Assembly: GCA_038230075.1 (NCBI GenBank)
Contig: JBBRNV010000004.1
Location: forward strand, 6,047-70,046
DNA from: Minisyncoccia bacterium
Lineage (GTDB): Bacteria > Patescibacteriota > Minisyncoccia > Phycocordibacterales > CALRBL01
Direction of reading: 5' to 3'
Length of the DNA stretch: 64,000 nt
Shown one piece after another: positions 3 through 36,337 of this stretch. The notes beneath the pieces are model-generated. The model ran no database searches. It was given only the letters and a program-made list of their open reading frames with translations, and was not told the DNA's origin. Position numbers and translations under genes: made by a program. The first letter of the stretch is position 1. Each line of letters starts with the position of its first letter.

Positions 3-2198
3 CCTCAAGATACTGAAAAATGCATTTACGATATGTGGGAGCAAAGTGGTGTGTTTAACCCTGATGTATGTGAAAAAGAAGGTCTTGTTGATGCAGCAAA
101 AGAACCTTTCTCAATGGTACTTCCCCCTCCAAATGTTACCGGAGTTCTTCATATGGGAAGTTCTCTCATGATTACTATCGAAGATATTATTGCGAGAAAA
201 GCTCGTATGGAAGGAAGAAAAACTCTCTGGATTCCAGGAACTGATCATGCCGCAATTGCCACACAATCTGTTGTTGAAAAGAAATTAGAAAAAGAAGAAG
301 GAAAACGAAAACATGATCTCGGACGAGAAGAATTCTTAAAACGAGTTGAGCAATTCGCTTCAGATAGTCATGACACCATTGTTACTCAAGCGAAAAGCTT
401 AGGTGGGTCTCTTGACTGGAGTCGTGAAGCATTCACGTTAGATGAAAAACGGAATCTCGCAGTTCGAACTGCATTTAAAACAATGCACGACGACGGATTA
501 ATTTATCGAGGATTTCGTGTTGTTAACTGGGATCCAAAAGGACAAACAACTATTTCCGACGATGAAATTGTATATGAAGAACGAGATACCATTCTTTACA
601 CGTTTTATTATGGAAAAGATAAAGATGGAAACAAATTCCCTATTCCAATTTCAACAACACGTCTCGAAACAAAATTTGGAGATCACGCTGTAGCGGTTCA
701 TCCTGATGACGAGCGATATCAAGAATATGTTGGACAAACATTTGATGTTGAATTTTTAGGCGAGCCTATTTCAATTAAAGTTATCGCAGATCATTCTGTT
801 GAAAAAGATTTTGGAACAGGAGCGCTTGGTGTCACACCAGCCCACAGCATGATTGATGCTGAAATTGCACAGCGACACGGTTTGAAAATGACACAGATTA
901 TTGATGAATATGGAAAGTTAATGGTTGGCCCTGAAGGTATCAAAGGAAAGAAAAGTGCTGAAGTACGACCTCTCATTGCAGAAAAATTAAAAGAAGCAGG
1001 CCTTCTGATTTCTGAAGAAAAAACAAAACAAAATATTTCAACAGCTGAACGAACAGGTGGTATCATCGAACCCCTTCCCAAATTGCAATGGTTCATTAAT
1101 GTAAACAAAGAAACAAAACACGGAAAGACATTAAAAGAAATGATGCTTAATGTTATTTCACCCAATGCAGGTGATAAAAAAATAACCTTTGTCCCTGAAC
1201 GATTTGAAAACATCTATTCAAAATGGATCGAAAATCTTAGAGACTGGTGTATCTCACGACAAATCTGGTATGGTCATCAAATTCCTGTATGGTATCGAGG
1301 TAACGAAATTTATTGCAATATTGATGCACCAAAAGATGATGGAAAAGGAGAATGGGTACAAGATTCTGATACCCTCGACACGTGGTTCTCATCTGGCCTT
1401 TGGACTTTCTCAACACTTGGTTGGCCTGATGTGAGTGCACAAGATCTCAAAGAATTTCATCCGACTACCCTTCTTGAAACAGGATCAGACATTATCTTTT
1501 TCTGGGTGGCGCGAATGATTTTAATGACAACGTATCTGCTCGACACCATTCCTTTTAAAACAGTGTACCTACATGGTCTTGTTCGTGACGGACAAGGGAG
1601 AAAAATTAGTAAATCGCTCGGAAACAATATTAATCCAATCGATATGATTACTAAATACGGCACCGACTCAATTCGAATGTCATTTGTTATTGGTACACAG
1701 CCTGGAGCCGACAGTAAGATATCAGAAGAAAAAATTAAGGCATATAAAAACTTTGCCAACAAACTCTGGAACATTACTCGTTTTGTTATAACAAACACCG
1801 AAGATTTCGAAGGAAATGCACACGAACAAACACTTGAAGATGTAGATCAGAGCCTTCTTAAAGAACATCTCGATTTCATTCAAGAAATTGATACTGAAAT
1901 TAATCAATATCATCTTCACTTAGCTGGAGAAAAAGCATATCACTATGTATGGCACACGTTCGCCGATCTTATTCTTGAAGATAGTAAGTTAAAGGTTGCA
2001 GAACCAGGAGCTACTAAAGCTTCTCGACAAGCATTTCTCATTATTGCCCTTTCTAACATTCTAAAGACACTTCATCCTTTTATGCCTTATGTTACCGAAG
2101 AAATTTGGCAATTGCTTCCTCAAAAATTTAAGCAAGAAAAAGGAGATCATCAACTTCTCATGGTTTCAAGATGGCCAGCTATCAACAAGAAAGTCTAA
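3..2198 (+). CDS. valS: valyl-tRNA synthetase, 5' partial (reading frame is already open at window start)
   Basis: Class I aaRS motifs: PPPNVTGVLHMGS (HIGH-type), GTDHAAIATQ, KISKSLGN (KMSKS); frame open from position 3 with PQDTEKCIYDMWEQ typical of ValRS N-terminus. Confidence 0.9.
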   Translation, partial: PQDTEKCIYDMWEQSGVFNPDVCEKEGLVDAAKEPFSMVLPPPNVTGVLHMGSSLMITIEDIIARKARMEGRKTLWIPGTDHAAIATQSVVEKKLEKEEGKRKHDLGREEFLKRVEQFASDSHDTIVTQAKSLGGSLDWSREAFTLDEKRNLAVRTAFKTMHDDGLIYRGFRVVNWDPKGQTTISDDEIVYEERDTILYTFYYGKDKDGNKFPIPISTTRLETKFGDHAVAVHPDDERYQEYVGQTFDVEFLGEPISIKVIADHSVEKDFGTGALGVTPAHSMIDAEIAQRHGLKMTQIIDEYGKLMVGPEGIKGKKSAEVRPLIAEKLKEAGLLISEEKTKQNISTAERTGGIIEPLPKLQWFINVNKETKHGKTLKEMMLNVISPNAGDKKITFVPERFENIYSKWIENLRDWCISRQIWYGHQIPVWYRGNEIYCNIDAPKDDGKGEWVQDSDTLDTWFSSGLWTFSTLGWPDVSAQDLKEFHPTTLLETGSDIIFFWVARMILMTTYLLDTIPFKTVYLHGLVRDGQGRKISKSLGNNINPIDMITKYGTDSIRMSFVIGTQPGADSKISEEKIKAYKNFANKLWNITRFVITNTEDFEGNAHEQTLEDVDQSLLKEHLDFIQEIDTEINQYHLHLAGEKAYHYVWHTFADLILEDSKLKVAEPGATKASRQAFLIIALSNILKTLHPFMPYVTEEIWQLLPQKFKQEKGDHQLLMVSRWPAINKKV

Positions 2199-2244
2199 AA
2201 GTACGAGAATAAAATAGAAAAATACAGTAAAATAGATTCACAGA

Positions 2245-3006
2245 TTGATTCTGTCATACATGTTGTTGTTTAAAGATAATCTCATCTTAAGTCTGGCACT
2301 CGCCTTTGTCTCAGGTTTTATTCCTGCACTTTTTTGGCTTCATTTTTGGTTGAAAGAAGACGATATTCATCCTGAACCTAAAAAATTAATCTTTAGAGCT
2401 TTCATTGCTGGAATTCTTGCAACTATTATTTCTGCACCGCTTGAATTATGGGCACGTCACGCACTAACTCCTGTTCTTTCTGAGTGTGGATACTATTTAA
2501 TTTTTGTATGGGCATTTATTGAAGAAGCCGCAAAACTTATTTGTTGTTTTTGGCTTGTATCACCAAAAAAATATGACGTGATGCCGATTGATCCAGTTAT
2601 TTTCTTAATCACAACCGCCCTTGGTTTTGCTGCGCTTGAAAACACTCTCTACGTTTTTCCTTTCATTTATAGCAACGGGCTCTCAATGGCTTTTGCTACA
2701 GCCAATATTCGATTCATTGGAGCAAGTCTTCTACACGTGCTCGCCTCTTCAACCATTGGTATGGCAATGTCATTTTCATTCTTCAAACGAACCCTTACTC
2801 GTCGAGAAGCATTACTTGGAGGAATCTTTCTTGCCTCACTTTTACACGCATCGTTTAACTTCTTTATTCTTTCAGGAGACACAGATAGTGCGGGATGCTC
2901 AAATGGAGGTGGAGGTGGATCATTCTTCTCAGTCCTTGCTTGTGTGTGGATTGCTATTATTATTCTCATCCTTATTCTCGAACGTATTAAATTGATTAAA
3001 CGATAA
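2245..3006 (+). CDS. PrsW-family polytopic membrane protease (putative)
   Basis: Multiple TM helices; conserved FIEEAAKL (EExxK), RFIGASLLHVL and LLHASFNFF (FxxxH/HxxxN-like) motifs; Gly-rich C-terminal tail. Confidence 0.6.
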   Translation: MILSYMLLFKDNLILSLALAFVSGFIPALFWLHFWLKEDDIHPEPKKLIFRAFIAGILATIISAPLELWARHALTPVLSECGYYLIFVWAFIEEAAKLICCFWLVSPKKYDVMPIDPVIFLITTALGFAALENTLYVFPFIYSNGLSMAFATANIRFIGASLLHVLASSTIGMAMSFSFFKRTLTRREALLGGIFLASLLHASFNFFILSGDTDSAGCSNGGGGGSFFSVLACVWIAIIILILILERIKLIKR

Positions 3007-3040
3007 TAGTGGATTACTGTGTGTTCTAATAAAAAGAATT

Positions 3041-3049
3041 TGATATACT
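3041..3049 (+). promoter_or_regulatory. extended -10 element TGATATACT, 6 nt upstream of Hsp20 ATG (leaderless or near-leaderless transcript)
   Basis: TGnTATACT match; no SD between it and ATG at 3056. Confidence 0.4.
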
Positions 3050-3055
3050 ACAAGC

Positions 3056-3559
3056 ATGAAAGAAAAAAGATCATTTTTTGAAAGACTAACCGGATCAATC
3101 AGTGTCGACGACTTTGATGCTGAAGAACAAGACATTGAAACGGCTCATATTAAACCAACTGGTGCACAACATGAAAAGTTAGCATCATGGATGAGTGAAG
3201 ATCCTGCTGAAGGACAACTCTCTGTTGATGTATTTCAAACTCCTACCCATATTATTATCAAATCAATGATTGCAGGTGTTCGCCGCGAAGACGTTGATAT
3301 CGCAATTTCTCGAGACATGCTGACAATTAAAGGAAAACGAGAAGAAGAACGTGGTATTCAAGATGGTGACTATTTTCATAAAGAACTCTATTGGGGAACA
3401 TTTTCTCGAACCATTCTTCTTCCTCATGAAATTGAAATTGAAGGGGCTGAAGCTATTGAAAATATGGGAATGCTTACTATTCGACTTCCTAAAGTTGATA
3501 AAGAGAAAAAGGCTAAACTTAAAGTAATGAAGTCTCAAGGTGGTTTTGTTGCAAACTAG
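3056..3559 (+). CDS. Hsp20/alpha-crystallin family small heat-shock protein
   Basis: alpha-crystallin domain pattern (LSVDVFQT..., GVRREDVDIAISRDMLTIKGKREEE, ...GTFSRTILLP...). Confidence 0.85.
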   Translation: MKEKRSFFERLTGSISVDDFDAEEQDIETAHIKPTGAQHEKLASWMSEDPAEGQLSVDVFQTPTHIIIKSMIAGVRREDVDIAISRDMLTIKGKREEERGIQDGDYFHKELYWGTFSRTILLPHEIEIEGAEAIENMGMLTIRLPKVDKEKKAKLKVMKSQGGFVAN

Positions 3560-3591
3560 ACAAAGGTTAGAGAATCCAACACCCACAAACA

Positions 3592-3623
3592 CCGAACCCG
3601 CAAGGTTCGGTCGTTTTGTTTTT
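3592..3623 (+). terminator. rho-independent terminator after Hsp20 gene
   Basis: CCGAACC-cgcaa-GGTTCGG hairpin followed by TCGTTTTGTTTTT. Confidence 0.7.
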
Positions 3624-3639
3624 ATATTGAGAACCAACT

Positions 3640-3715
3640 TGGTGCCGAGAGGCAGATTTGAACTGCCGACCCCACGCTCTTCAGGCGTATGCTCTACCAA
3701 CTGAGCTATCTCGGC
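3640..3715 (-). tRNA. tRNA-Phe (anticodon GAA), CCA encoded
   Basis: Reverse complement reads GCCGAGATAGCTCAGTTGGTAGAGCATACGCCTGAAGAGCGTGGGGTCGGCAGTTCAAATCTGCCTCTCGGCACCA; cloverleaf with anticodon loop CTGAAGA. Confidence 0.9.
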
Positions 3716-3732
3716 AAATGAAGAATCAACTA

Positions 3733-4047
3733 TTACTTAAGTGAACTACTTGCCGTGCTGCTTCCAAAATCAGGCAGTAGTTTTTTGAAGAAGTCTGGAA
3801 TACTTTGGACCTTCAGTTCAACGTTATGTTGTGTAGTCTGAAGTGACTGATATGTTTTGAGTGCTTGCTCCAAATATGGCTGAATTGTCTGGTATGACCA
3901 CAAAGCGAGGCCTAGGATCACAATCCAATAGAGAACGTGAATAATGCTCATTATACGCCCATTTCGGCGCATACTTCGAAGCATTCGATTGTTCTCTTCA
4001 GCCAACTCAAGATTCTTTTTTAAAAGCACTCGCACATCAGGGTCCAT
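3733..4047 (-). CDS. hypothetical small membrane protein
   Basis: 104-aa ORF with one strongly hydrophobic helix (IIHVLYWIVILGLALW); no recognisable domain. Confidence 0.45.
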   Translation of the reverse strand: MDPDVRVLLKKNLELAEENNRMLRSMRRNGRIMSIIHVLYWIVILGLALWSYQTIQPYLEQALKTYQSLQTTQHNVELKVQSIPDFFKKLLPDFGSSTASSSLK

Positions 4048-4079
4048 ATAGGCAATATAACAGAAAATTACTTATAATT

Positions 4080-4994
4080 CTAGGCCTTCCATCGGGCAAA
4101 GATACCTGAGGGCAAAAGACGCTTTTTTGGTCCAGATTCTCTAATGGTCAGTTCTCCCGCTTCAATACTTCCCCTGTGGTTTTTCTCTAACACCTTCAAG
4201 TTTTCAGCATATGAAAGCGACGAGTATCCAGCTGAGTATCCGTTTAGAATAAAGAAGAGTGGTTGCTGAGGATGCAAAATATCGAAGCAAGAATCGAGAA
4301 GTGAGAGTAGGTCTTTTTCTATCATCCATGTTTCTTTCTTTGCACCATGTCCAAATGAAGGTGGATCCATAATAATACCGTGATACAGTGCTCCTCTTCG
4401 TTTTTCCCGTTCAACAAACTTTCGCGCATCGTCGAGCATCCATCGAATATCTTTGTCGGAAACATTTGAAGCTTTGGTATTTTCTTTTGCCCATTCAATT
4501 GTTCCTTTTGATGCATCAACATGGGTAACATGTGCGCCGGCTTGAAGTGCAGCAACACTCGCAGCTCCTGTATAGCCAAATAAATTGAGCACCATTACTT
4601 CTTTTCTATTTCCCCCATTCTCACCTGTGGCTAATGCTTTTGAAATAATATCTTTTGTCCACTGCCAATTAGAAAATTGTTCAGGAAAAATACCTGTGTG
4701 TTTAAATGAACTTAATTTAACCACCAAATTCATATCGTTTAAAGAAATAATCCACTCAGGTGGAACTTCTTCTTTCTCTTTATTAAAAAACCATCGTCCC
4801 TTTCCTCCCTCTGGCGACTCAAAAGAAGCGTGTGCATTTTTCCACACCGACTCTGGTTGACTCTTTTTCCACAACGCTTGCGGATCGGGTCGTGCAATAA
4901 CAAAAGACCCATATCGCTCGAGCTTCATTTCATCTCCACTGTCGATAAGTTCATAGTCCTTTTGAGGTGCTGTTTCGAGAATTGATAGATTCAT
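4080..4994 (-). CDS. class I SAM-dependent RNA methyltransferase (RlmI/YwbD-like)
   Basis: SAM-binding VLNLFGYTGAASVAA and catalytic DPPSFG motif. Confidence 0.7.
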   Translation of the reverse strand: MNLSILETAPQKDYELIDSGDEMKLERYGSFVIARPDPQALWKKSQPESVWKNAHASFESPEGGKGRWFFNKEKEEVPPEWIISLNDMNLVVKLSSFKHTGIFPEQFSNWQWTKDIISKALATGENGGNRKEVMVLNLFGYTGAASVAALQAGAHVTHVDASKGTIEWAKENTKASNVSDKDIRWMLDDARKFVEREKRRGALYHGIIMDPPSFGHGAKKETWMIEKDLLSLLDSCFDILHPQQPLFFILNGYSAGYSSLSYAENLKVLEKNHRGSIEAGELTIRESGPKKRLLPSGIFARWKA

Positions 4995-10012: not shown

Positions 10013-10702
10013 TTATGCCCAACCTTTTTCTTTGATAGCTTTTGTCGCAGCTTGTTGTTCTGCTTCCTGCTTAGATTTTCCTTCACCTTCTGCAATCATT
10101 ATTTCATCGAGAAAAACGCCGACAACAAACTTTTTATCGTGATCAGGACCAGTTTCTTTCATTGTTTTATAGAGTGGAGTAAATCCTGTCTTTTCCTGAG
10201 ATTTTTCTTGAAAGTTACTCTTTGCATCAATGTGCGATCCAGTTCGAAGAATGTCGTCAAAGGTTGAAAGAATGAATGAGTCTACGAATGTTTTTGCAAC
10301 ATTGTATCCTTGGTCGAGATATATTGCTCCAAGAAGAGCTTCGATGGTATTAGCTAAAATAAATTGTCGAGCACGGCCCATGTCTTTCGATTCTCCTCTT
10401 GAAAGAAGCAAGTAGTCGCTAAAATGTAAATTTGCAGCGATAGCAGCCAATGTATTTGCATTAACTAATGCTGAACGATATGTTGTTAAATCTCCTTCTG
10501 GTTTTGTTGGAAATTTTTTAAACAAGAATTCGGTTACTACCAATTCAAGTACGGCATCACCTAAGAACTCAAGTCGCTCGTTGTGTTCGAGTTTTAAATT
10601 TCGATTTTCATTTAAATACGAGCGATGTGTAAAAGCCTGTTTTAAAAGCTCTTTATTATTAAATATAGTCTGTATTGATTGTTCAAATTTACTAAAGTCC
10701 AT
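10013..10702 (-). CDS. rnc: ribonuclease III
   Basis: RNase III signature ERLEFLGDAVLELVV; C-terminal dsRBD. Confidence 0.9.
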   Translation of the reverse strand: MDFSKFEQSIQTIFNNKELLKQAFTHRSYLNENRNLKLEHNERLEFLGDAVLELVVTEFLFKKFPTKPEGDLTTYRSALVNANTLAAIAANLHFSDYLLLSRGESKDMGRARQFILANTIEALLGAIYLDQGYNVAKTFVDSFILSTFDDILRTGSHIDAKSNFQEKSQEKTGFTPLYKTMKETGPDHDKKFVVGVFLDEIMIAEGEGKSKQEAEQQAATKAIKEKGWA

Positions 10703-10721: not shown

Positions 10722-11633
10722 TTAAACTTGTGCTTTATTTTTTATTAAGATATTGATTGCTTTTGTCACAATTGGAAGAATGTCGTTATAGAAATTGAGT
10801 TCAACAATTTCTTCAACTTTAAACCACCGAGCGTCATCGAGTCCTCCACTTTTTTCAAGTGTCACAGGGATGAACTTTGATTTTCCTAAAAAGTACGTTA
10901 CCTGCTTTCGAATTTTTCCATCTTCTGGGTGTGTCGCAATGTATTCATTTCGAGCAAGTTCATCTTCGATCACAATATCAAGATTAATTTCTTCTTTAAT
11001 TTCTCGTTTTGTTCCCTCTTTAATGTCTTCATCTTTTTCAAGTTTTCCTTTTGAAAGAGTCCAGTGACCGAACACATCGTGAACGAAGGCAAGCATGAGT
11101 TGATCTTTGTCCCACGCGTACACAACTGATCCTCCAAGATTTTGAATGGGCATTTGTTCATATGGAACATTTGCGAATTTCTTTTTCTTTGCAGATGTTT
11201 CTTCTTTTCCTGGTTCCCCAAGTTCTTTGTACACCGCACCAAGTACTCCGTTCACGAATTTTCCAGAAGTTTCTCCACCGAATGTTTTTGCAAGTTCAAT
11301 TGCTTCATTAATCGCCACTTTTGCAGGAACTTCTTTTCGATCAGAAAAGAGAAGCTCATAAAGCCCTATTCGAAGAATGTTTCTATCGGTTGTTGAGATT
11401 TTATCAATTGGCCATTCAGGGGCTGCCTTTTCGATGATTTGATCAAGCTCACTTCGTTTTGCCAAAATGTTCTTCGTCAAATCCCGAATAAATGTTACAT
11501 CCCCTACTCCTGGAGCAAATTCTTCAGCGTCACGAGTAATGATCTCATCAATGGTATCGTCGTGTTGACCACGAAAATCCCACTCAAAGAGTGTTTGCAT
11601 GACGATTGACCGAGAGAGATGTCTGTTTGCCAT
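10722..11633 (-). CDS. nusB: NusB antitermination-like domain fused to a C-terminal NUDIX hydrolase domain
   Basis: N-terminal NusB fold (VMQTLFEWDF..., ARxxALQxLy-type helices), C-terminal Nudix box GKLEKDEDIKEGTKREIKEEINL. Confidence 0.75.
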   Translation of the reverse strand: MANRHLSRSIVMQTLFEWDFRGQHDDTIDEIITRDAEEFAPGVGDVTFIRDLTKNILAKRSELDQIIEKAAPEWPIDKISTTDRNILRIGLYELLFSDRKEVPAKVAINEAIELAKTFGGETSGKFVNGVLGAVYKELGEPGKEETSAKKKKFANVPYEQMPIQNLGGSVVYAWDKDQLMLAFVHDVFGHWTLSKGKLEKDEDIKEGTKREIKEEINLDIVIEDELARNEYIATHPEDGKIRKQVTYFLGKSKFIPVTLEKSGGLDDARWFKVEEIVELNFYNDILPIVTKAINILIKNKAQV

Positions 11634-11690
11634 ATCGGTTTAGTTGTAATGGTACATAAAGTCGTTTATTTCCCTGACAAAGGGAGGTGC

Positions 11691-11924
11691 TTACCGTGCA
11701 CCAGCGTCTTTCATGCGTGATTCACGCTTCTTAATTTTCTTGTCTAACTTCTTGTTAACGTCGATAACCTGTCGCCCGGCATACATACCGGTTGTAAGAG
11801 AAACACGGTGCTTCATGTAAAGATCACCTGTTTTCTTGTCTTTAGCTACAGCAGGAGTACCAAGAGCGTGGTGAGCGCGTCTCTGGGCTGTATGAGAACG
11901 TGTGTGTCGCATTCGTACTGTCAT
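11691..11924 (-). CDS. rpmF: 50S ribosomal protein L32 (non-zinc form, C-terminally extended)
   Basis: MRHTRSHTAQRRAHHAL...KHRVSLTTGMYAGRQV matches L32 pattern. Confidence 0.7.
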   Translation of the reverse strand: MTVRMRHTRSHTAQRRAHHALGTPAVAKDKKTGDLYMKHRVSLTTGMYAGRQVIDVNKKLDKKIKKRESRMKDAGAR

Positions 11925-11933
11925 AATGGAGAA

Positions 11934-11962
11934 ACTATAGCCTATAGCGTTTAAAAAGGCAA
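11934..11962 (-). promoter_or_regulatory. candidate sigma70 promoter for rpmF (TTGCCT-N17-TATAGT), -10 ends ~10 nt before ATG (leaderless)
   Basis: hexamers on minus strand read from sequence. Confidence 0.35.
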
Positions 11963-12009
11963 ATCCTTGGGGCTGAACTAAGGTTTAGGGGTTTTAAGCC
12001 ACACAACGG

Positions 12010-12037
12010 TTGACACCGTAAATTCATATGATATGGT
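12010..12037 (+). promoter_or_regulatory. strong candidate promoter TTGACA-N16-TGaTATGGT (extended -10)
   Basis: Perfect -35 plus TGn-extended -10; identical 10-mer ATGATATGGT recurs at 25222-25231. Confidence 0.5.
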
Positions 12038-12043
12038 ATCGAA

Positions 12044-12182
12044 AGCTTTTGGTATTGCTATTGCAAGTGCGACATATGATGACGAGCTTCGGGGCGGATA
12101 CTCCCTCGGATAGTCATTATTGCCACGTGTCAGCATGTCGGTTGAAGGGGCCCGGGATCGCGAGATTCTGGGCCCTTTTCTT
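12044..12182 (+). ncRNA. candidate small RNA (~140 nt) of unknown class between two minus-strand genes
   Basis: Promoter at 12010-12037; GC-richer structured segment; intrinsic terminator 12147-12182 with T-tract on plus strand only; no credible ORF. Confidence 0.3.
12147..12182 (+). terminator. rho-independent terminator (GGGGCCC ... GGGCCC + TTTTCTT)
   Basis: Self-complementary GGGCCC arms with 16-nt loop followed by T-run on plus strand. Confidence 0.6.
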
Positions 12183-12189
12183 ATATGTT

Positions 12190-12909
12190 CTACTTAATAA
12201 AACTCTTTCTGTGCTCAGAGGTGATTCCGTACTTCTTTATAGCTTTAACGTGAAATAATGTTCCATACCCAACATGTGTATCAAAACCATACTTAGGATA
12301 TTTTTTTGCCAATGTATACATTAATGTATCTCGAGTAACTTTCGCTGCAATTGATGCGAGTGCAATCGCAGGCTCTTGTTCGTCCCCTTTTATAATTGAA
12401 ACTTGATTACTAAATTCAGATGGTGCTTTCAGTCTTCCGTCGAGTAACACCGTTGTTGTGTTTATATTCGCCTTAAGTTTTCTTAAGCATTTCTTCATCG
12501 CCTCTTGTATAGAATGAGTTAAGCCACGCGAATCAACTATCGCTGGTTTTGTATGACCAATAGCAAACTTTAAAATTCCTTCTTTCTGCCATCGCTTAAT
12601 TCGGGAAAACCAAATTTCTCGATCTTCGCGTCGTAGCTGTTTCGAGTCTTTTAATCCGACTAATAGTCGACATGTTGCGAGGTCAAACAATTGTGTAGTT
12701 GAAATAAGCACAGCACCAACTGAAACTGGCCCAGCAAATGATCCCCTTCCCACCTCATCAATTCCAATAATAAATTCAGAATCATAATGTGAATCAAAAT
12801 TCATTTCATGTTTTGACTGCTTTTTTCGAGTAGTTTGTAGCTTTCGTGTTGCCGCATATTTTCGAAGGGGCCGCAACTTCTTTTTTCTTTCCATGCGCAT
12901 ATAATACAC
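12190..12909 (-). CDS. rnhB: ribonuclease HII (true start probably the internal Met at 12804)
   Basis: FIIGIDEVGRGSFAGPVSVGAVLI matches RNase HII active-site region; basic N-terminal 35-aa extension overlaps dnaE -10 box and is probably not translated. Confidence 0.85.
   Translation of the reverse strand: MYYMRMERKKKLRPLRKYAATRKLQTTRKKQSKHEMNFDSHYDSEFIIGIDEVGRGSFAGPVSVGAVLISTTQLFDLATCRLLVGLKDSKQLRREDREIWFSRIKRWQKEGILKFAIGHTKPAIVDSRGLTHSIQEAMKKCLRKLKANINTTTVLLDGRLKAPSEFSNQVSIIKGDEQEPAIALASIAAKVTRDTLMYTLAKKYPKYGFDTHVGYGTLFHVKAIKKYGITSEHRKSFIK
12900..12905 (+). promoter_or_regulatory. TATAAT -10 box 7 nt upstream of dnaE ATG (leaderless)
   Basis: consensus hexamer read directly. Confidence 0.35.
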
Positions 12910-12912
12910 GCA

Positions 12913-15900
12913 ATGGCTGAGACTACTCTAAACCCTGCACCCGTCGTTACTTCAGAGTCAATTTCTGAGGCTGTTTCAGTTGCCCAAACTCCAACACCCG
13001 CTTCATTATTTACCCACCTTCATTGTCACAGTCACTACAGCCTCCTTCAAGCACTTCCTCAGATTCCTGATCTTGTTGGATACGCTAAAAAATGTGGCAT
13101 GACCTCTCTCGCACTTACCGACGCTGGAAACATGTATGGAGTAATTGAGTTCTATAAAGAATGTAGGAAAAAGGAAATTAAACCAATTGTTGGTGTCGAC
13201 TTCTATGTCGCTCTTCGCACACGACATGATAGAGAATCTCGAATCGACAACAAACGAACTCGACTCGTACTTCTTGCAAAAAGTCTTGATGGATACAAAA
13301 GCTTAATTAAACTTGTTACTGGTTCAAACCTAGAAGGTTTTTACTATAAAGCTCGAATCGATCAAGAACTTCTCGAACAACATAAAAAAGAGTTGATTTG
13401 CATTGTTCCCTCAATAAGCGGAGATCTTTCACTTGCCATTAAAGGAAAAGATTTTGAAAAAGCAAAACATTTAGCAGATTGGTATAAAGAACAATTTGGC
13501 GATGACTTTTATTTAGAAATTACACACCATCCTGAAATTGAAGGCCACGAAGAACACATGAAGCGATCAATTGCATTTGCTCGAGAAAATAATGTGCAAC
13601 TAGTTGCTGCGCACGACACATACTATCTTGACCCAGAAGATAAACGAGCTCGAGATACACTTGTATCAATTCAAAATGAATACACCGAAAGATCACATGG
13701 AGGAGATCCAAGTGATTGGTCATTTATTTCAAAGGAAAAAGCTGGAGAACTATTTATAAACGAACAAGATGCGTTGCTAAATGTTGGAAAGATTGTTGAG
13801 AAATGTAATCTCGATCTTCCACTTGGTGTATGGCTCTTCCCTGAATTTACTATTGCAAGTGGAAAACATGCAGATGACGAACTTCGAGATATTGTGTTTG
13901 ATGGAATGAAACGAAGAAAAATCGAACCGACACCAGAGGTACTTGAACGTGTTGAGTATGAACTTCGTGTCATTAAAGACAAAGGCTATGCTCCTTACTT
14001 TCTTGTGGTAGGAGACCTTCTCCGAGAAGCTCATGAAAAAAATATTCTTACCACCATTCGAGGTTCGGTTGCTGGTTCAATGGTGACCTTCTTAGCCCAC
14101 ATTACAAACGTTAATCCAATGGAATACATGCTTCCTTTTGAACGATTTCTGAATCCTGACCGACCATCAGCACCTGACATCGACATGGACTATGCCGATA
14201 ATCGTCGAGACGAAATTATTCAATACGCGAGACAAAAATACGGAACCGATAAGGTGGCACAAATTGGAACATTCGGAACAATGATGGCACGAGGAGCTGT
14301 TCGAGATACTGCTCGGGCATTAGGATATCCATACACCGTTGGAGATCGCATTGCAAAAATGATTCCCATGGGTTCACAAGGTTTTCCTATGACCTTAAAA
14401 AAGGCAATGGAAATTACTCCAGAACTTCAAGAAGCATATGAATCTGACGAAGAGGTAAAAGAAGTTATCGATATGGCTAAAAAAATCGAAGGATGTGCTC
14501 GACACATTTCGGTTCACGCAGCTGGTGTGGTTATTTCACCGATCCCCTTAAGTGATATCGTTCCAACACAATTTGACCCAAAAGGCGAAGGAAAAATTAT
14601 CACACAATATGACATGCACTCCGTTGATGAAAACAGTGCAGGTCTTTTAAAGTTCGACTTTCTTGGAATTCGAAACCTATCAATTCTTGCTGATGCAGTG
14701 CGACTCGTAAAAGAACAACTCGATATTGTCGTTGATATTGAAAATGTAAAAATTGATGACAAAAAAACATTTGAAATGCTTGCGCGTGGTGAAACAACAG
14801 GCCTCTTTCAACTAAACGGAGATGGAATGACGAGAGCGTTGATGGAACTAAAGCCAACAAGTATTCACGATATTAATGTGATGGTAGCTTTGTATCGACC
14901 GGGTCCTATGGCAACGATTGAAGAATATATCGCTCGAAAAAATGGAAAGCATAAAACAACGTTTTATCATCCAAAAATGAAAAAATTCTTGGAACGAACC
15001 TTTGGACTTCTTGTGTATCAAGACGACCTTCTTTATACCGCCATTGAACTTGCTGGATATGACTGGGGGTCAGTAGATAAATTCCGAAAAGCTGTGGGAA
15101 AAAAGATTCCTGAAGAAATGGCAAAGCAGCACAAAATTTTCGTTGATGGTTGTCAGAAGTTTAGTGGAATGTCTGAAAAAGATGCCGAAAAAATTTGGAC
15201 GCTATTTGAACCATTCCAAGGATACGGATTCAACAAAGCACATGCGGCAAGTTATGGAAAAGTGGCGTATCAAACTGCCTTCATGAAAGCCAACTTCCCC
15301 GCTCTCTATATGTCAGCAGTGCTCACCGCTGAATCAGGAAACATCGAAGAAATTGGAACCAACATTACCGAATGTAAGCGAATGGGAATTCCTGTACTTC
15401 CTCCATCAATTAATGAAAGTTTCAAAGGTTTTACCGTGGTTAAAGTGGTAAATCCTGATCTTGAAGCAAACCCAGATGCGTCAAAAGAAGTTGACGCTAT
15501 TCGATTCGGACTCGTTACCATTAAAAACTTCGGTGAAGGAATTGCGGAAGTTGTTATCAAAGAACGAGAAGAACACGGAAAGTTTGTGTCGCTTGAGAGT
15601 TTTTTGAAACGAGTTAGAGATCGAAGTTTAAATAAAAAATCTGTTGAATCACTTATTAAAGCAGGAGCTCTTGATGAATTCGGAGAGCGAGGAGTATTGC
15701 TTCACAATCTTGAGCTCATTCTTCATTTTAATAAAGAAGCAGCTCACATGCCTGAACACTCAGAGACACTATTCGGAGGAATTGCTGAGGCTGAAGTTTC
15801 TGCCAAGCTTGTATTAGAAGATGCACCGAAGGCATCGAGTGAAGATGTTTTGTTGTGGGAAAAAGAATTACTCGGTTTGTACATTTCAGGTCATCCTCTC

Positions 15901-25202: not shown

Positions 25203-25231
25203 TCGACAAACCTAATACTACATGATATGGT
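25203..25231 (+). promoter_or_regulatory. candidate promoter TCGACA-N17-TGaTATGGT, same architecture and 10-mer as 12010-12037
   Basis: read directly; shared ATGATATGGT. Confidence 0.5.
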
Positions 25232-25267: not shown

Positions 25268-25900
25268 ATGTTCATTGCAACACTGAGTACAGCTCAAACA
25301 GTTGTGTTACTCGTTCTTACTGCCGCACCAACTTGTGTGATCTGCACTTGCCTCAAATCGTGGCTAGAGATACGAAAAACAACACCTCGATATCGCTTGA
25401 ACGTGTTTTGGAAAAACGATATAAACTTTCAACAAGGAAAATCGCCCTTTGATTCACTTCTTCACATTGCTGGACGTGTGATCAACAAAGTCAGCGATAA
25501 CTCAACTCGAGACCTTGAATTTATTCTCGCAAAGACTTCTCGACTAGAGCTCTCTGTCGAGGAATGTTTTGGACAAGCGATGTCCTCACTACTTCTCGTG
25601 CGAGTGGCTGAATTCCAAATCAAGGCAGAAGCACATGTTCGAAGTACTGCCGAAAAAAGATTTGACTTTCACGATCTGGCAGTTTCATCTGGAAGAATCG
25701 TACTACTTCTTGAACACTACATTCCACTGTGTCCAGAGTATGTTACATATCTACTATCTCTTGCGCCCGAAGGTGTGAGCGATGCAGACAAGTCGTTTGC
25801 TTCAACAATGGAGCTTTCACTTTTCAGAATCTGCGGCGGTAAACTAATACGTCCAGGTACTAGAAGTGAAGTCTTCCAACACGAATGCAGGAATCGTTAA
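25268..25900 (+). CDS. hypothetical protein (210 aa) with N-terminal hydrophobic/Cys-containing segment; no recognisable domain; could alternatively be non-coding
   Basis: 633-nt open frame with host-like codon usage (cga, gaa, aaa) in slightly GC-elevated region; no SD. Confidence 0.4.
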   Translation: MFIATLSTAQTVVLLVLTAAPTCVICTCLKSWLEIRKTTPRYRLNVFWKNDINFQQGKSPFDSLLHIAGRVINKVSDNSTRDLEFILAKTSRLELSVEECFGQAMSSLLLVRVAEFQIKAEAHVRSTAEKRFDFHDLAVSSGRIVLLLEHYIPLCPEYVTYLLSLAPEGVSDADKSFASTMELSLFRICGGKLIRPGTRSEVFQHECRNR

Positions 25901-32857: not shown

Positions 32858-35800
32858 TTATTTGTTGTTACCTTCCTCTTGTTCTTGCGACCTTTCGTCA
32901 TCTACTGAATTATTTATAAGCTTTACATCAAGTGCCAATCCTCGAAGGTTATTCAAGAGCACATTAAATGACGCAGGGCTGTTTGTTTGTGTAATTCGAT
33001 TTCCCTTCACAATTGAATCGAAGGCTGCTGAACGTCCGAGAATATCGTCTGATTTGATAGTAAGAACTTCTCGAAGGATGTGGGCTGCACCGTGACCTGA
33101 AAGGGCCCACACTTCCATTTCTCCAAATCGTTGTCCTCCACCCTGAGCCTTTCCTCCAAGAGGTTGCTGAGTAATGAGAGAGTACGGACCAATTGATCGC
33201 ATGTGAATCTTATCTTCAACCATGTGGTGAAGTTTAAGAAGATACATGTATCCAACAGCAATATCTTTATCGAAGGCGTCTCCTGTTTGTCCATCGAAGA
33301 GTTTCATCTTTCCACCTTCTTGATATCCTGCAGTTACTAACTCTTCTTTGATTTCAGCAATTGTTGCTCCTGCGAATGCGGGAACCACAGCCTGATATCC
33401 GAGTGCATTTGCAGCAAGACCAAGATGAAGTTCAAGAATCTGTCCAAGGTTCATACGTGATGGCACTCCAAGTGGTGTCAAAATAACGTCGATAGGAGTT
33501 CCGTCTGCCATGTATGGCATTTCTTCTTCAGGAAGAATTCGTGAGATAACACCTTTATTTCCGTGTCGTCCAGCAAGTTTGTCTCCGACGGTAACGTTTC
33601 GAACTTGTGCAACTTCAATGTGAATTCGTTTGATGATTCCAGATTCAAGTTTGTCTCCTTTTTCTCGTGAGAATACTTTTACAGAAACAATTCTTCCTTT
33701 CTTTCCATTTTCCATTCGTTTTGATGTATCTTTCACATCTCGAGATTTCTCTCCGAAGATAGATCGAAGAAGTCGTTCTTCAGGAGTAAGTTGTGTTTCT
33801 CCCTTTGGAGTAATTTTTCCAACTAAGATATCTCCCGGATGTACTTCTGCTCCAATTCGTACGATTCCTTCATGGTCAAGATTCTTTAGTTTTGCTTCTC
33901 CAACATTTGGAATATCAGGAGTTGTAACTTCGGGTCCTAGTTTTGTGTCTCGCACATTCACCACAAATTCTTCAACGTGAATACTAGTGAACTTACTATT
34001 CTTAACTAATCGTTCTGAAAGAATGATGGCATCTTCATAGTTTGCGCCGTTCCATGACATGAAGGCGATGAGTGCATTGTGACCTAGAGCAATTTGTCCG
34101 TGATCAGAAGTTGATGCGTCAGCCAAAATATCTCCTTTCTTTACTTCCTGATTAAGATTTACCTGTGGTCGCTGGTGATAGTCGGTAAACTGGTTTGTTC
34201 GTGAAAATTCTACAAGCTTGTATTCAACTTCTTTTCCTTTTGTAGGCTTAAATGTAATGTGTCGGGCATCTACCGCAACAACTGTTCCGTCTTCTGGAGC
34301 AACAATCAATCTTCCTGTGTCGTACGCAGCCTGCTTTTCGATTCCAGTTGCAACAATAGGTGCTTCTGGTTCTAGTGGAGGAACTGCCTGCTTCTGCATG
34401 TTTGAACCCATCAGCGCTCGGTTAGCATCATCATGGTTCACGAAAGGAATCATGGCTGTTGCAATTGAGAATGCCTGGTTTGTTGCAACGTCGATATATT
34501 GAACTTCAGAAGGCGCCAAAATGGCTGGTTTTCCTTTAATTCGAACTTCAACAAATTCACTCACGAATGCTCCGTTTTTATCGTAATTATTTCCTGCGTG
34601 AGCAATGGCAAAACCTTCTTCTTCAAGCGCATTAACGTAGACAACTTCTCCAGTGATTTTTCCATTCTTAACTTTAACAAGAGGAGTTTCAATCATTCCG
34701 AAATTGTTTACTCGTGCATATGCTGACAAGTGAAGTACAAGACCAATGTTTGGACCTTCAGGTGTGTGAATTGGGCAGAGTCGTCCGTAGTGAGAAGGAT
34801 GCACGTCTCGAACTTCGTAACCTGCTCGTTCTCGTGTAAGTCCTCCAGGACCAAGTGCAGACACAATTCTTAAGTGCTCAAGTTCGTTCAACAAGTTATC
34901 TTGCTGCATGAATTGTGAGAGCTGGTTTGTAGTAAAAAATTCTTTGATTCGAGCTTGAAGTGGTCGAGGAACAATGAATTGCACAGGAAGTGTTGCATCA
35001 GTATCAATAGTAGACATTCGGTTTTGAATGTTTCGCTTGATCTGAGTCATACCCAATCGAATCTTTTGTGCAAGAAGTTCTCCAACATATCGAACTCGTC
35101 GTGATCCTAGGTGGTCAATATCATCAGGTGCTCCTTCTCGATTGTGATTTAAATCAACAATGTTTTTGATGATAGTAATAACGTCATCAAGAGAAAGTGT
35201 CTTTCGTTTTAGTTCAGCTTCAGTTTTTGGTTTGTTGAATCGATTATTGAATCGGTGTCGTCCTACAGGAGAAAGATCGTATCGGTCTTCTCCGAAAATT
35301 GACCCTACGAATTCTCGTGCATTTTCTACTGTTGCAAGATCACCATCTCGAAGTCGTCGATAGATTTCAACAAATGATTCATCTGATGTCTTTGCGTGAT
35401 CTTTCGCGATACTTGCTTCAATATGTTTGAGGGCAAGTTCATTATCTTTGAAGTGTGCGAGAAGATCTTTTGCTTCTTCTCCAGCACCGAATACTCGTAG
35501 AAGTGATGAAATTGGGAACTTTCGTTTCTTGTCGATTCGAACGTAAATAGCATTGTCAGGATCTGATTCAATTTCCATCCATGCTCCTCGAGCTGGAATT
35601 ACTTTGGCACCAAAGTAATTTCGTCCTTTCAATTCTTCAGAGGTGAAGAATACTCCGTATGATCGAGCAAGTTGTGGCACAATAACTCGTTCGATTCCGT
35701 TAATAACAAAAGTACCGTGATTTGTCATCAAAGGTAGATCTGCCATGAAAATCTCTTGTTCTTTTACTGAACCAAGGATTTTATTTTTAACGCGAACCAT

Positions 35801-36106
35801 CACCTTTAGAGGTGCTTCGTATGTTAACTTATTGTGCTTTGCATAAAATTCGTCGAACTTAGGATGAGTGATTTCGAAACCAGTGAAATCGAGTTCAAAC
35901 TTTTTCTCAGAGTAGTCTTTGATTGAAGAGAATTCTCCAAATACTTCTTTGAGTCCTTTTTCAAGCAGTTGCTTGAAAGATTCGATCTGACCTTCTACCA
36001 GGTTTGGAAGAGGTGCGAGTGCTTCTTTAAATTTACTAAAAACTTTAACAGGTCGCGCTCCTGGACTCAGTGTTGAGCCAGTCTTGTGTTCATGTTTGTG
36101 TGCCAT
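32858..36106 (-). CDS. rpoB: DNA-directed RNA polymerase subunit beta
   Basis: conserved beta-subunit blocks throughout, 1082 aa. Confidence 0.97.
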   Translation of the reverse strand: MAHKHEHKTGSTLSPGARPVKVFSKFKEALAPLPNLVEGQIESFKQLLEKGLKEVFGEFSSIKDYSEKKFELDFTGFEITHPKFDEFYAKHNKLTYEAPLKVMVRVKNKILGSVKEQEIFMADLPLMTNHGTFVINGIERVIVPQLARSYGVFFTSEELKGRNYFGAKVIPARGAWMEIESDPDNAIYVRIDKKRKFPISSLLRVFGAGEEAKDLLAHFKDNELALKHIEASIAKDHAKTSDESFVEIYRRLRDGDLATVENAREFVGSIFGEDRYDLSPVGRHRFNNRFNKPKTEAELKRKTLSLDDVITIIKNIVDLNHNREGAPDDIDHLGSRRVRYVGELLAQKIRLGMTQIKRNIQNRMSTIDTDATLPVQFIVPRPLQARIKEFFTTNQLSQFMQQDNLLNELEHLRIVSALGPGGLTRERAGYEVRDVHPSHYGRLCPIHTPEGPNIGLVLHLSAYARVNNFGMIETPLVKVKNGKITGEVVYVNALEEEGFAIAHAGNNYDKNGAFVSEFVEVRIKGKPAILAPSEVQYIDVATNQAFSIATAMIPFVNHDDANRALMGSNMQKQAVPPLEPEAPIVATGIEKQAAYDTGRLIVAPEDGTVVAVDARHITFKPTKGKEVEYKLVEFSRTNQFTDYHQRPQVNLNQEVKKGDILADASTSDHGQIALGHNALIAFMSWNGANYEDAIILSERLVKNSKFTSIHVEEFVVNVRDTKLGPEVTTPDIPNVGEAKLKNLDHEGIVRIGAEVHPGDILVGKITPKGETQLTPEERLLRSIFGEKSRDVKDTSKRMENGKKGRIVSVKVFSREKGDKLESGIIKRIHIEVAQVRNVTVGDKLAGRHGNKGVISRILPEEEMPYMADGTPIDVILTPLGVPSRMNLGQILELHLGLAANALGYQAVVPAFAGATIAEIKEELVTAGYQEGGKMKLFDGQTGDAFDKDIAVGYMYLLKLHHMVEDKIHMRSIGPYSLITQQPLGGKAQGGGQRFGEMEVWALSGHGAAHILREVLTIKSDDILGRSAAFDSIVKGNRITQTNSPASFNVLLNNLRGLALDVKLINNSVDDERSQEQEEGNNK

Positions 36107-36296
36107 AACATGGTGCTCTCATCTCTTTTGCATCCTTTGTGCAAAGTACACAAAAAAGAGTGAGAGTAAATATTAAATTTTGCCTACACATAGTGCTCAC
36201 CTTTAGTTACGATGAGTGTATGAGAGGCCTAATAAGCTTATAAAGGAGTGACAAGCTCATTACATCAAGAATGACGCAATCGGCAATGAGGCAATA

Positions 36297-36324
36297 AATA
36301 TAACAAAGATTTCTATATAGTCAA
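36297..36324 (-). promoter_or_regulatory. candidate rpoBC promoter TTGACT-N16-TATATT, implying ~180-nt 5' leader
   Basis: hexamers read on minus strand; leader contains 12-bp palindrome CTTTGTGCAAAG. Confidence 0.4.
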
Positions 36325-36337
36325 GGGTTTTCAGAGT

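Follow-up and report, generated by a model that had tools for sequence, protein, structure and literature searches.

A promoter- and terminator-bounded orphan unit between rpmF and rnhB of a Patescibacteria genome, possibly the shell of a lost gene cassette

Two minus-strand genes, rpmF and rnhB, are separated by 265 nucleotides (nt) in the stretch of DNA studied here, and within this gap a short segment of the plus strand carries what looks like its own promoter and its own terminator. What such a segment may produce, and where it may have come from, is the question raised by this locus. The stretch analysed, a window of 64 kb (64,000 nt), belongs to an uncultured Patescibacteria genome of the Paceibacteria/Parcubacteria type, and the segment is located at positions 12010-12186. 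A preliminary description of the locus had proposed a small RNA (sRNA) of about 140 nt at this place. In our analysis the segment is predicted to be a real orphan transcription unit of the plus strand, and the explanation that we favour, with our confidence evenly divided for and against it, is that the unit is the shell of a cassette which remained after the coding part was lost.

The promoter of the unit carries a TTGACA -35 box (12010-12015, plus strand), which was recognised both by reading the sequence and by a promoter scan, and an extended -10 element, TGaTATGGT (12029-12037, plus strand), in which TG occupies 12029-12030 and TATGGT occupies 12032-12037. With a spacer of 16 nt it scores 10/12, which agrees with the near-consensus promoter described earlier. 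The scan covered the whole window at a cut-off of at least 10/12 plus the TG and was compared with 100 dinucleotide shuffles; four such sites were found, against 1.58 +/- 1.3 expected. All four of these top-scoring sites are intergenic and each faces something downstream, and among the promoter-like sites of the window a perfect -35 box is present at 12010 only. A second TG-TATGGT site (25203-25231) lies just upstream of a plus-strand open reading frame (ORF) at 25268-25900. The expectation of 1.58 sites per 128 kb of strand corresponds to about 0.003 sites on one strand of the rnhB-rpmF gap and, by simple arithmetic, the chance of finding such a promoter together with a terminator 100-140 nt downstream is about 1e-4. 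Because this joint expectation is so low, the pairing of promoter and terminator at 12010-12186 is judged not to be accidental.

The unit ends in a predicted intrinsic terminator, a hairpin of 16 pairs (eight of them G-C) with a GCGA loop (12144-12179, plus strand), which folds at -28 kcal/mol with a z-score of -4.97 and is followed by TTTTCTT. The U-rich tail TTTTCTTATAT extends over 12176-12186 of the plus strand, and its first four T are also paired in the stem. Hairpin and tail together form the strongest terminator-like site within the window. When the minus strand is read, the stem is followed by CUUCAACCGAC and no U-tract, and the terminator (12144-12186) is predicted to be unidirectional, in the plus orientation. 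This orientation is meaningful in the genome of the window, because the other strong terminators (3591, plus strand; 46275 and 49762, minus strand) are situated at gene 3' ends and have their U-tracts in the orientation matching the strand of their genes. The predicted RNA would span from about 12044, the putative start site with a margin of 2 nt, to about 12183-12186, roughly 140 nt in all. Its 3' end would lie 4-7 nt before the rnhB stop codon, while in the direction of rnhB the hairpin begins 10 nt after that stop. The elements of the preliminary description were all found to be present where it had placed them, far beyond chance expectation, and the bounded plus-strand unit is upheld as a prediction from sequence.

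The transcript body predicted between these signals (12044-12143, plus strand) comprises 100 nt with a G+C content of 0.49, in comparison to 0.384 for the window, and the segment is therefore as G+C-elevated as had been remarked. Every plus-strand ORF of at least eight codons inside the unit crosses the terminator; frames of 20 and 25 codons end at 12197, past the U-tract, and a longer frame enters rnhB in antisense. No start codon was found at leaderless distance from the -10 box of the unit. A plus-strand ORF of 76 codons gave no Pfam match, and its 76-residue product, when compared by HMMER with 1.84 billion representative proteins, matched two tandem-repeat proteins only, via a hydrophobic stretch, both of which matches we judge to be spurious. 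For a minus-strand ORF of 52 codons no Pfam match was obtained, and no promoter or Shine-Dalgarno (SD) motif was seen on reading its sequence. Because all the ORFs cross the terminator and no start at leaderless distance is present, the unit is predicted to be non-coding, in agreement with the earlier view that it holds no credible ORF.

The folding of the unit was found to be less informative than its strong signals may suggest. The whole unit folds at -56.5 kcal/mol (z-score -3.48), and both the minimum free energy (MFE) and the centroid structures consist of four separate hairpins, without a helix closing the 5' and 3' ends. The body alone has an MFE fold of three hairpins at -28.5 kcal/mol with a z-score of -0.58, and 51 of the 200 shuffles were at least as stable. 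In these models the fold signal of the whole unit is attributable to the terminator alone, since the body without the terminator stays at shuffle level, and they provide no evidence for a selected fold in the 100-nt body. In an AT-rich genome, a structured RNA family should not be deduced from a strong promoter, a strong terminator and a raised G+C content alone.

Homologues of the unit were searched in 169 loci, of which 80 came from GTDB species genomes (RnhB profile), 80 from metagenomes (NusB-NUDIX protein) and nine from exact-protein look-ups. Comparison of the RNA unit with the related loci by blastn and nhmmer (83 loci, then 167 of the collection) gave no match. A single-sequence covariance model, R1, built from the sequence and its predicted fold, recovered only the unit itself in 100 sources comprising 509 kb, and a structure-tolerant, loop-anchored and stem-free pattern, GATGACGAGC-N6-10-GGATAC-N6-10-ATAGTCAT, had 0 matches in metagenome contigs. 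No paralogue of the unit is present in the window, and distant blastn against a phage collection returned no match to it. The comparison with homologous loci that had been suggested along with folding thus yielded a body at shuffle level and no homologue. Of the proposed sRNA, the bounded non-coding unit holds, while no sign of a selected structure or of membership of an RNA family was found, and the implication of a structured RNA of some class is not supported.

The same slot in related genomes offers a different comparison. The gene order rnhB-rpmF-nusB is widely kept, and the gap between rnhB and rpmF, which ranges from 28 to about 1500 nt, is hypervariable in Paceibacteria. Its contents are unrelated between lineages and include nothing at all, bare hairpins, protein genes on the opposite strand or smpB. 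In locus L001 (NusB 76% identical) the slot contains a cassette (3764-4260) on the strand opposite to rpmF, which begins with TTGACA-17-TATAAA at 77 nt from the rpmF ATG, continues with a leader of about 70 nt and a 132-codon ORF (orf132) with a hydrophobic N-terminus, and closes with the terminator GGCGCCC-GAAA-GGGCGCC-TTTACTTTTT about 12 nt from the rnhB stop. In L168, from the lineage with NusB 79% identical, two cassettes are arranged in tandem (2125-3160). The first has a TTGACT box 87 nt from the rpmF ATG, a leader of about 65 nt, a broken ORF and then a terminator, the ORF being split into 44 codons (with a signal peptide and an LGGC lipobox) and 85 codons. In the second, a TTGACA box precedes a 119-codon ORF (orf119) whose N-terminus is signal-like, and the terminator abuts the rnhB stop. 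Weak paralogy links the 85- and 119-residue products (35% identity over 31 residues, E-value 1e-4), and for orf119 a single relative (87%) was found among 5.8 billion proteins. No Pfam families were found in the cassette proteins, and the cassette transcript of L168 folds with a z-score of -1.5. In both L001 and L168 the terminators next to the rnhB stop are oriented for the opposite-strand cassette, against rnhB. The G+C content of the cassette ORFs is 0.50-0.54 in genomes of 0.38-0.41, and that of the cassette leaders is 0.33-0.375.

Locus L085, from a sister strain of L168, has promoter, leader and terminator (1-140) nearly base for base as in L168 (alignment A3). It is without the ORF segment of about 430 nt, which leaves a promoter-terminator shell of about 90 nt, and this shell folds with a z-score of -0.02.

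The unit of the window can be regarded as the positional counterpart of these orphan cassettes (orf132 of L001; orf44/85 and orf119 of L168), because it shares with them the slot, the strand, the distance of the -35 box, the placement of the terminator and the elevated G+C content of the body. In each case an outward TTGAC(A/T) box lies 77-87 nt from the rpmF ATG (86 nt in the window, 87 nt in L168 and 77 nt in L001; the box is also present in L085), and a terminator abuts or lies against the rnhB stop. The difference is that the cassettes have ORFs of 119-132 codons with hydrophobic N-termini, whereas the unit has a body of 100 nt and no ORF. The elevated G+C content of the body is also explained more simply as a property of a cassette, since the cassettes in the same slot are themselves G+C-rich. 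According to the explanation that we favour, a sigma-70-type promoter (12010-12037) would drive transcription of the plus strand from about 12044, and the intrinsic terminator (12144-12186) would release an untranslated RNA of about 140 nt, its strength halting transcription before rnhB is entered in antisense. The coding part of a lineage-specific, G+C-rich cassette would have been lost and the shell of promoter and terminator left behind, as in L085. The RNA of such a shell would be an orphan by-product, at most a very young sRNA, and no member of a structured RNA family. More useful than the unit itself is its context, for in the slot of the relatives orphan cassettes turn over and collapse to shells, which illustrates a route from gene decay to short non-coding transcripts.

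Several observations weigh against this descent. Local DNA alignments of the unit with the L001 and L168 cassettes remained at shuffle level and tblastn gave E-values of at least 0.2, and the case for a cassette ancestor draws only on where the unit lies, how it is oriented and built, and its composition. Even the nearest relatives, with NusB 75-79% and RnhB 52% identical, are distant, none closer being found in the protein collection searched, and at such distances non-coding homology would be erased, whether it had been real or had never existed. The L085 shell comes from a short Logan contig of 1377 nt and does not show the junction of a clean deletion. Moreover, an intact near-consensus promoter with a flawless terminator is unlike the product of long neutral decay; the signals of the unit being intact, either a recent loss or maintenance has therefore to be supposed.

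A comparable mode of origin has been described for OxyS: it took the place of a peroxidase gene beside oxyR, kept the promoter of that gene and arose from a fragment of its mRNA (Krieger et al. 2022, PMC8825220). Like OxyS, the unit would give a short, terminator-ended non-coding transcript divergent from its neighbour gene, in a slot where relatives (L001 and L168) carry a protein gene in the same orientation with a promoter at the same position. For OxyS, however, residual similarity to the peroxidase mRNA, the regulator OxyR, expression and targets are known, whereas the unit is a predicted one; residual ancestral similarity was searched in it and was not found. The parallel concerns the mode of origin and not the family, and no sequence relation is claimed. 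Species-specific orphan sRNAs have also been found to arise in rearranged intergenic regions (Raghavan et al. 2015, PMC4350180). The unit resembles these in having a sigma-70-type promoter and an intrinsic terminator, in its non-syntenic, variable region and in having no homologues outside its lineage. It differs in that theirs were detected by RNA sequencing, some of them with phenotypes, whereas the unit was deduced from the sequence, and in that the host here is an uncultured member of the Patescibacteria with ORFs that look mostly leaderless. To our knowledge, no Hfq-type chaperone is known for this host.

A functional, lineage-specific regulatory sRNA, kept by selection and acting in trans on mRNAs or in cis on rnhB, is a possible though on the whole improbable alternative. 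Both the promoter and the terminator of the unit are undamaged and unsurpassed within the 64 kb, the unit is without an ORF, and there is precedent, OxyS among others, for young sRNAs that took over the slot of a protein gene together with its promoter (PMC8825220). In the cis variant, read-through from rnhB, made plausible by the lack of a U-tract on the minus strand of the hairpin, would form with the sRNA a perfect duplex of up to 140 base pairs (bp), a substrate for RNase III, and the gene of this enzyme, rnc (10013-10702, minus strand), is encoded three genes away. The unit has the predicted features that are generally looked for in a stand-alone sRNA, that is, its own promoter and its own Rho-independent terminator on the same strand, a position outside coding sequence and an untranslated transcript. 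Conservation or identifiable targets were not found, a weak test where the nearest available genomes are distant. A regulatory role is further opposed by the body being no more structured than its shuffles and by the absence of any demonstrable conservation in the related loci. The longest antisense matches of the unit in the window are chance-level 12-mers, and an RNAduplex scan of the 55 translation-start regions of the 64 kb, which belong to a contig of at least 95 kb, by a method that permits huge loops, gave a best energy within about two standard deviations of shuffled sRNAs. If transcribed, the unit would be among the very few concrete sRNA candidates in Patescibacteria, whose RNA-based regulation is hardly known; our literature search on sRNAs of this group found nothing relevant.

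A bolder and still more doubtful view combines both ideas. In this Paceibacteria clade the slot would be a fixed 'expression socket', formed by a conserved outward promoter beside rpmF and a terminator against rnhB, in which G+C-rich orphan sequences are gained, duplicated and lost, and the unit would be a newborn regulatory sRNA derived from a decayed orphan gene. If true, it would provide a first tangible example of an sRNA being born in the Candidate Phyla Radiation, whose streamlined genomes are seemingly largely leaderless and SD-less.

It is rather unlikely that no plus-strand RNA is made at all, the promoter being a chance or decayed one and the hairpin serving rnhB, either by terminating its transcription independently of a U-tract or by stabilising its 3' end as a stem-loop. 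The closeness of the hairpin to the rnhB stop is in favour of this reading, and so is the promoter of rpmF. The latter (-35 TTGCCT, 17-nt spacer, -10 TATAGT; 11934-11962, minus strand) ends 9 nt before the ATG, is of the leaderless type and stands back-to-back with the promoter of the unit, and its CAT-N9-ACTATA arrangement recurs across the relatives. As rpmF has its own conserved leaderless-type promoter, the rnhB-rpmF gap is a boundary between transcription units, and transcription of rnhB should end within it. Further, the -10 box TATGGT of the unit matches in only 4/6 positions, and the majority of promoters in the genome combine a TATAMT-like -10 box with a weak -35 box. A promoter-like site is, however, hardly to be expected by chance on one strand of the gap, and the second TG-TATGGT site of the window precedes a plus-strand ORF. 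The T-tract is found on the plus side only, in a genome where the other strong terminators follow the strand of their genes, and the terminators by the rnhB stop in L001 and L168 likewise face an opposite-strand cassette. The scenario which the preliminary description had set against its own proposal, a simple rnhB 3' untranslated region (UTR) with a terminator acting for the minus strand, fits poorly for the same reason of the U-tract.

It is very improbable that the unit is the leadered mRNA of a tiny protein, or that it acts as a conditional attenuator with read-through antisense across rnhB into dnaE (an excludon-like long leader). The cassettes of the relatives do have 5' UTRs of about 65-70 nt, and dnaE lies on the plus strand, 727 nt beyond the terminator. 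The candidate ORFs (20-50 residues), however, extend through the terminator and then either end beyond the U-tract or continue into antisense rnhB, the long ORF has neither a Pfam match nor a credible homologue, and dnaE has its own -10 box, TATAAT (12900-12905), 7 nt before its ATG at 12913. No segment that could compete for the -28 kcal/mol terminator stem was found on reading the sequence, and no known aptamer was matched. A riboswitch or attenuating leader was likewise rejected, as no riboswitch family appeared at E-values up to 10 and, beyond the unit, the following 720 nt run antisense to rnhB.

The known RNA families, whose search had been recommended, were covered with Rfam and ARAGORN. 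With Rfam at the gathering score, the whole window gave only two tRNAs elsewhere and nothing at the unit, and a permissive search (E-value up to 10) of 451 nt (11850-12300) found no model of signal recognition particle (SRP) RNA, 6S RNA, RNase P RNA, transfer-messenger RNA (tmRNA) or a riboswitch. The best score was that of ctRNA_p42d (RF00489), with 21.1 bits over 12146-12184 and a gathering score of 50. The likeness consists in a G+C-rich hairpin followed by UUUUCUU; the match covers the terminator only, and no plasmid repC context is present at the unit. Membership of this family was rejected, the score being far under the gathering score and the match a terminator look-alike. ARAGORN found 0 genes in 11500-12700, and Rfam gave no match on 20 syntenic loci or on the L168 gap.

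The single classes were also considered by their architecture. Small SRP RNA forms one long hairpin, closed between its 5' and 3' ends, with a GNRA-capped helix 8 that contains conserved symmetric and asymmetric internal loops. The bacterial small SRP RNA (4.5S, RF00169) was rejected as no model matched and four independent hairpins are predicted instead of one long one, and the GCGA-capped stem cannot be read as SRP helix 8 since it is an uninterrupted stem of 16 bp without internal loops. 6S RNA is an extended helix of about 180 nt whose central bubble imitates an open promoter. The preliminary description had left this class possible; it is now unlikely, with no 6S family at E-values up to 10 and a unit of about 140 nt that folds into four separate hairpins without closing stem or central bubble. 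The sizes of tmRNA and RNase P RNA are around 350 nt, and both were rejected with negative ARAGORN and Rfam results and a unit that is too short, so that the earlier failure to recognise SRP RNA, tmRNA or RNase P RNA by eye is borne out. A C/D-box or kink-turn reading of AUGAUGA was rejected as well, there being no D box and the strand lying within a regular helix; the C/D-box matches which the permissive Rfam search gave at this stretch are due to chance.

A tmRNA-like sequence occurs in the slot of another relative, L020 (about 3120-4110, minus strand of the locus), where smpB lies in the rnhB-rpmF gap and is followed by a sequence that starts like a tmRNA (GGGAGTGAATTGATTCGACAG...), contains what may be a tag frame ending in ...LAYA* and has a tRNA-like 3' end in which the T-loop is odd. 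This sequence beside smpB may be a divergent tmRNA. It was called neither by Rfam at the gathering score nor by ARAGORN, and Rfam negatives in Patescibacteria are consequently not absolute. A housekeeping RNA (4.5S/SRP, 6S or similar) so divergent that it escapes the Rfam models in this group is nevertheless the least probable reading of the unit, scarcely credible in spite of the strong promoter and strong terminator on a short RNA that are the usual look of abundant housekeeping RNAs, because even permissive searching found no such model, the four hairpins have no closing helix and the sole GNRA-capped helix is a perfect stem, and because conservation would be expected of it, yet nothing similar is present in the 169 related loci and the closest relatives hold protein ORFs in its place.

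The local gene order of the window is smc, rnc, nusB-nudix and rpmF on the minus strand, the 265-nt gap, rnhB on the minus strand and dnaE on the plus strand. The names of smc and rnc were assigned by synteny with L001 and L003, whose genes had precomputed Pfam matches. As described earlier, both genes flanking the unit are on the minus strand, with rpmF (ribosomal protein L32; PF01783, E-value 9.2e-12) at 11691-11924 on the left and rnhB (RNase HII; PF01351, E-value 2.3e-32) at 12190-12909 on the right, convergent with the unit. The best non-self matches of RnhB are 52-55% identical, and the named ones come from Parcubacteria, Nomurabacteria or Paceibacterota. The nusB-nudix gene (10722-11633, minus strand; PF01029 and PF00293) encodes NusB fused to a NUDIX hydrolase domain, a fusion kept at 55-79% identity in thousands of Paceibacteria proteins, with the best relative 79% identical.

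On the other side of rnhB, dnaE starts at 12913 on the plus strand. Opposite to its -10 box, TATTAT (12906-12901, minus strand) is located 6 nt before an ATG in the rnhB frame at 12894, and one palindromic -10 box appears to be common to these two divergent genes of leaderless type. The long rnhB ORF begins with 'MYYM', an N-terminus present in L168 too, which is the reverse complement of this shared box. The true start of rnhB is probably the ATG at 12894, because the extension merely mirrors the -10 box. In the window as a whole, a -10-like TAnnnT box was found 5-9 nt before the start codon in 31 of the 54 ORFs (for example at 3056, 7645, 9950, 12913, 21463, 25173 and 58494), which suggests that gene expression in this genome is largely leaderless. 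No SD-like motif was seen by eye in the upstream sequences of the ORFs, and their -35 boxes are mostly weak.

In the wider collection, many contigs (L084, L087, L097, L099, L143 and others) end within or right beside the rnhB-rpmF gap, which is consistent with strain-level heterogeneity breaking the assemblies at this slot. In loci without an adjacent rnhB, the region upstream of rpmF contains tRNA genes or a tRNA-synthetase-like ORF. As read from the sequences, the tRNA genes in L093, L098 and L128 have the same divergent orientation. The gap of L013 (about 3200-3400, minus strand) contains a long-range inverted repeat of about 25 bp (CTTAGAGCCTATCCACTAACCCCA ... GGGTGGAGTTAGTGGGTGGGCTCTAAG) around some 90 nt, which has no sequence relation to the unit of the window. 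Elsewhere in the window, a strong promoter-like site, TTGACT-16-TGnTATATT (36324-36297, minus strand) in the gap at 36107-36337 is situated about 190 nt upstream of a 1082-codon ORF (32858-36106), which would give this ORF a rare long leader in an otherwise leaderless-looking genome.

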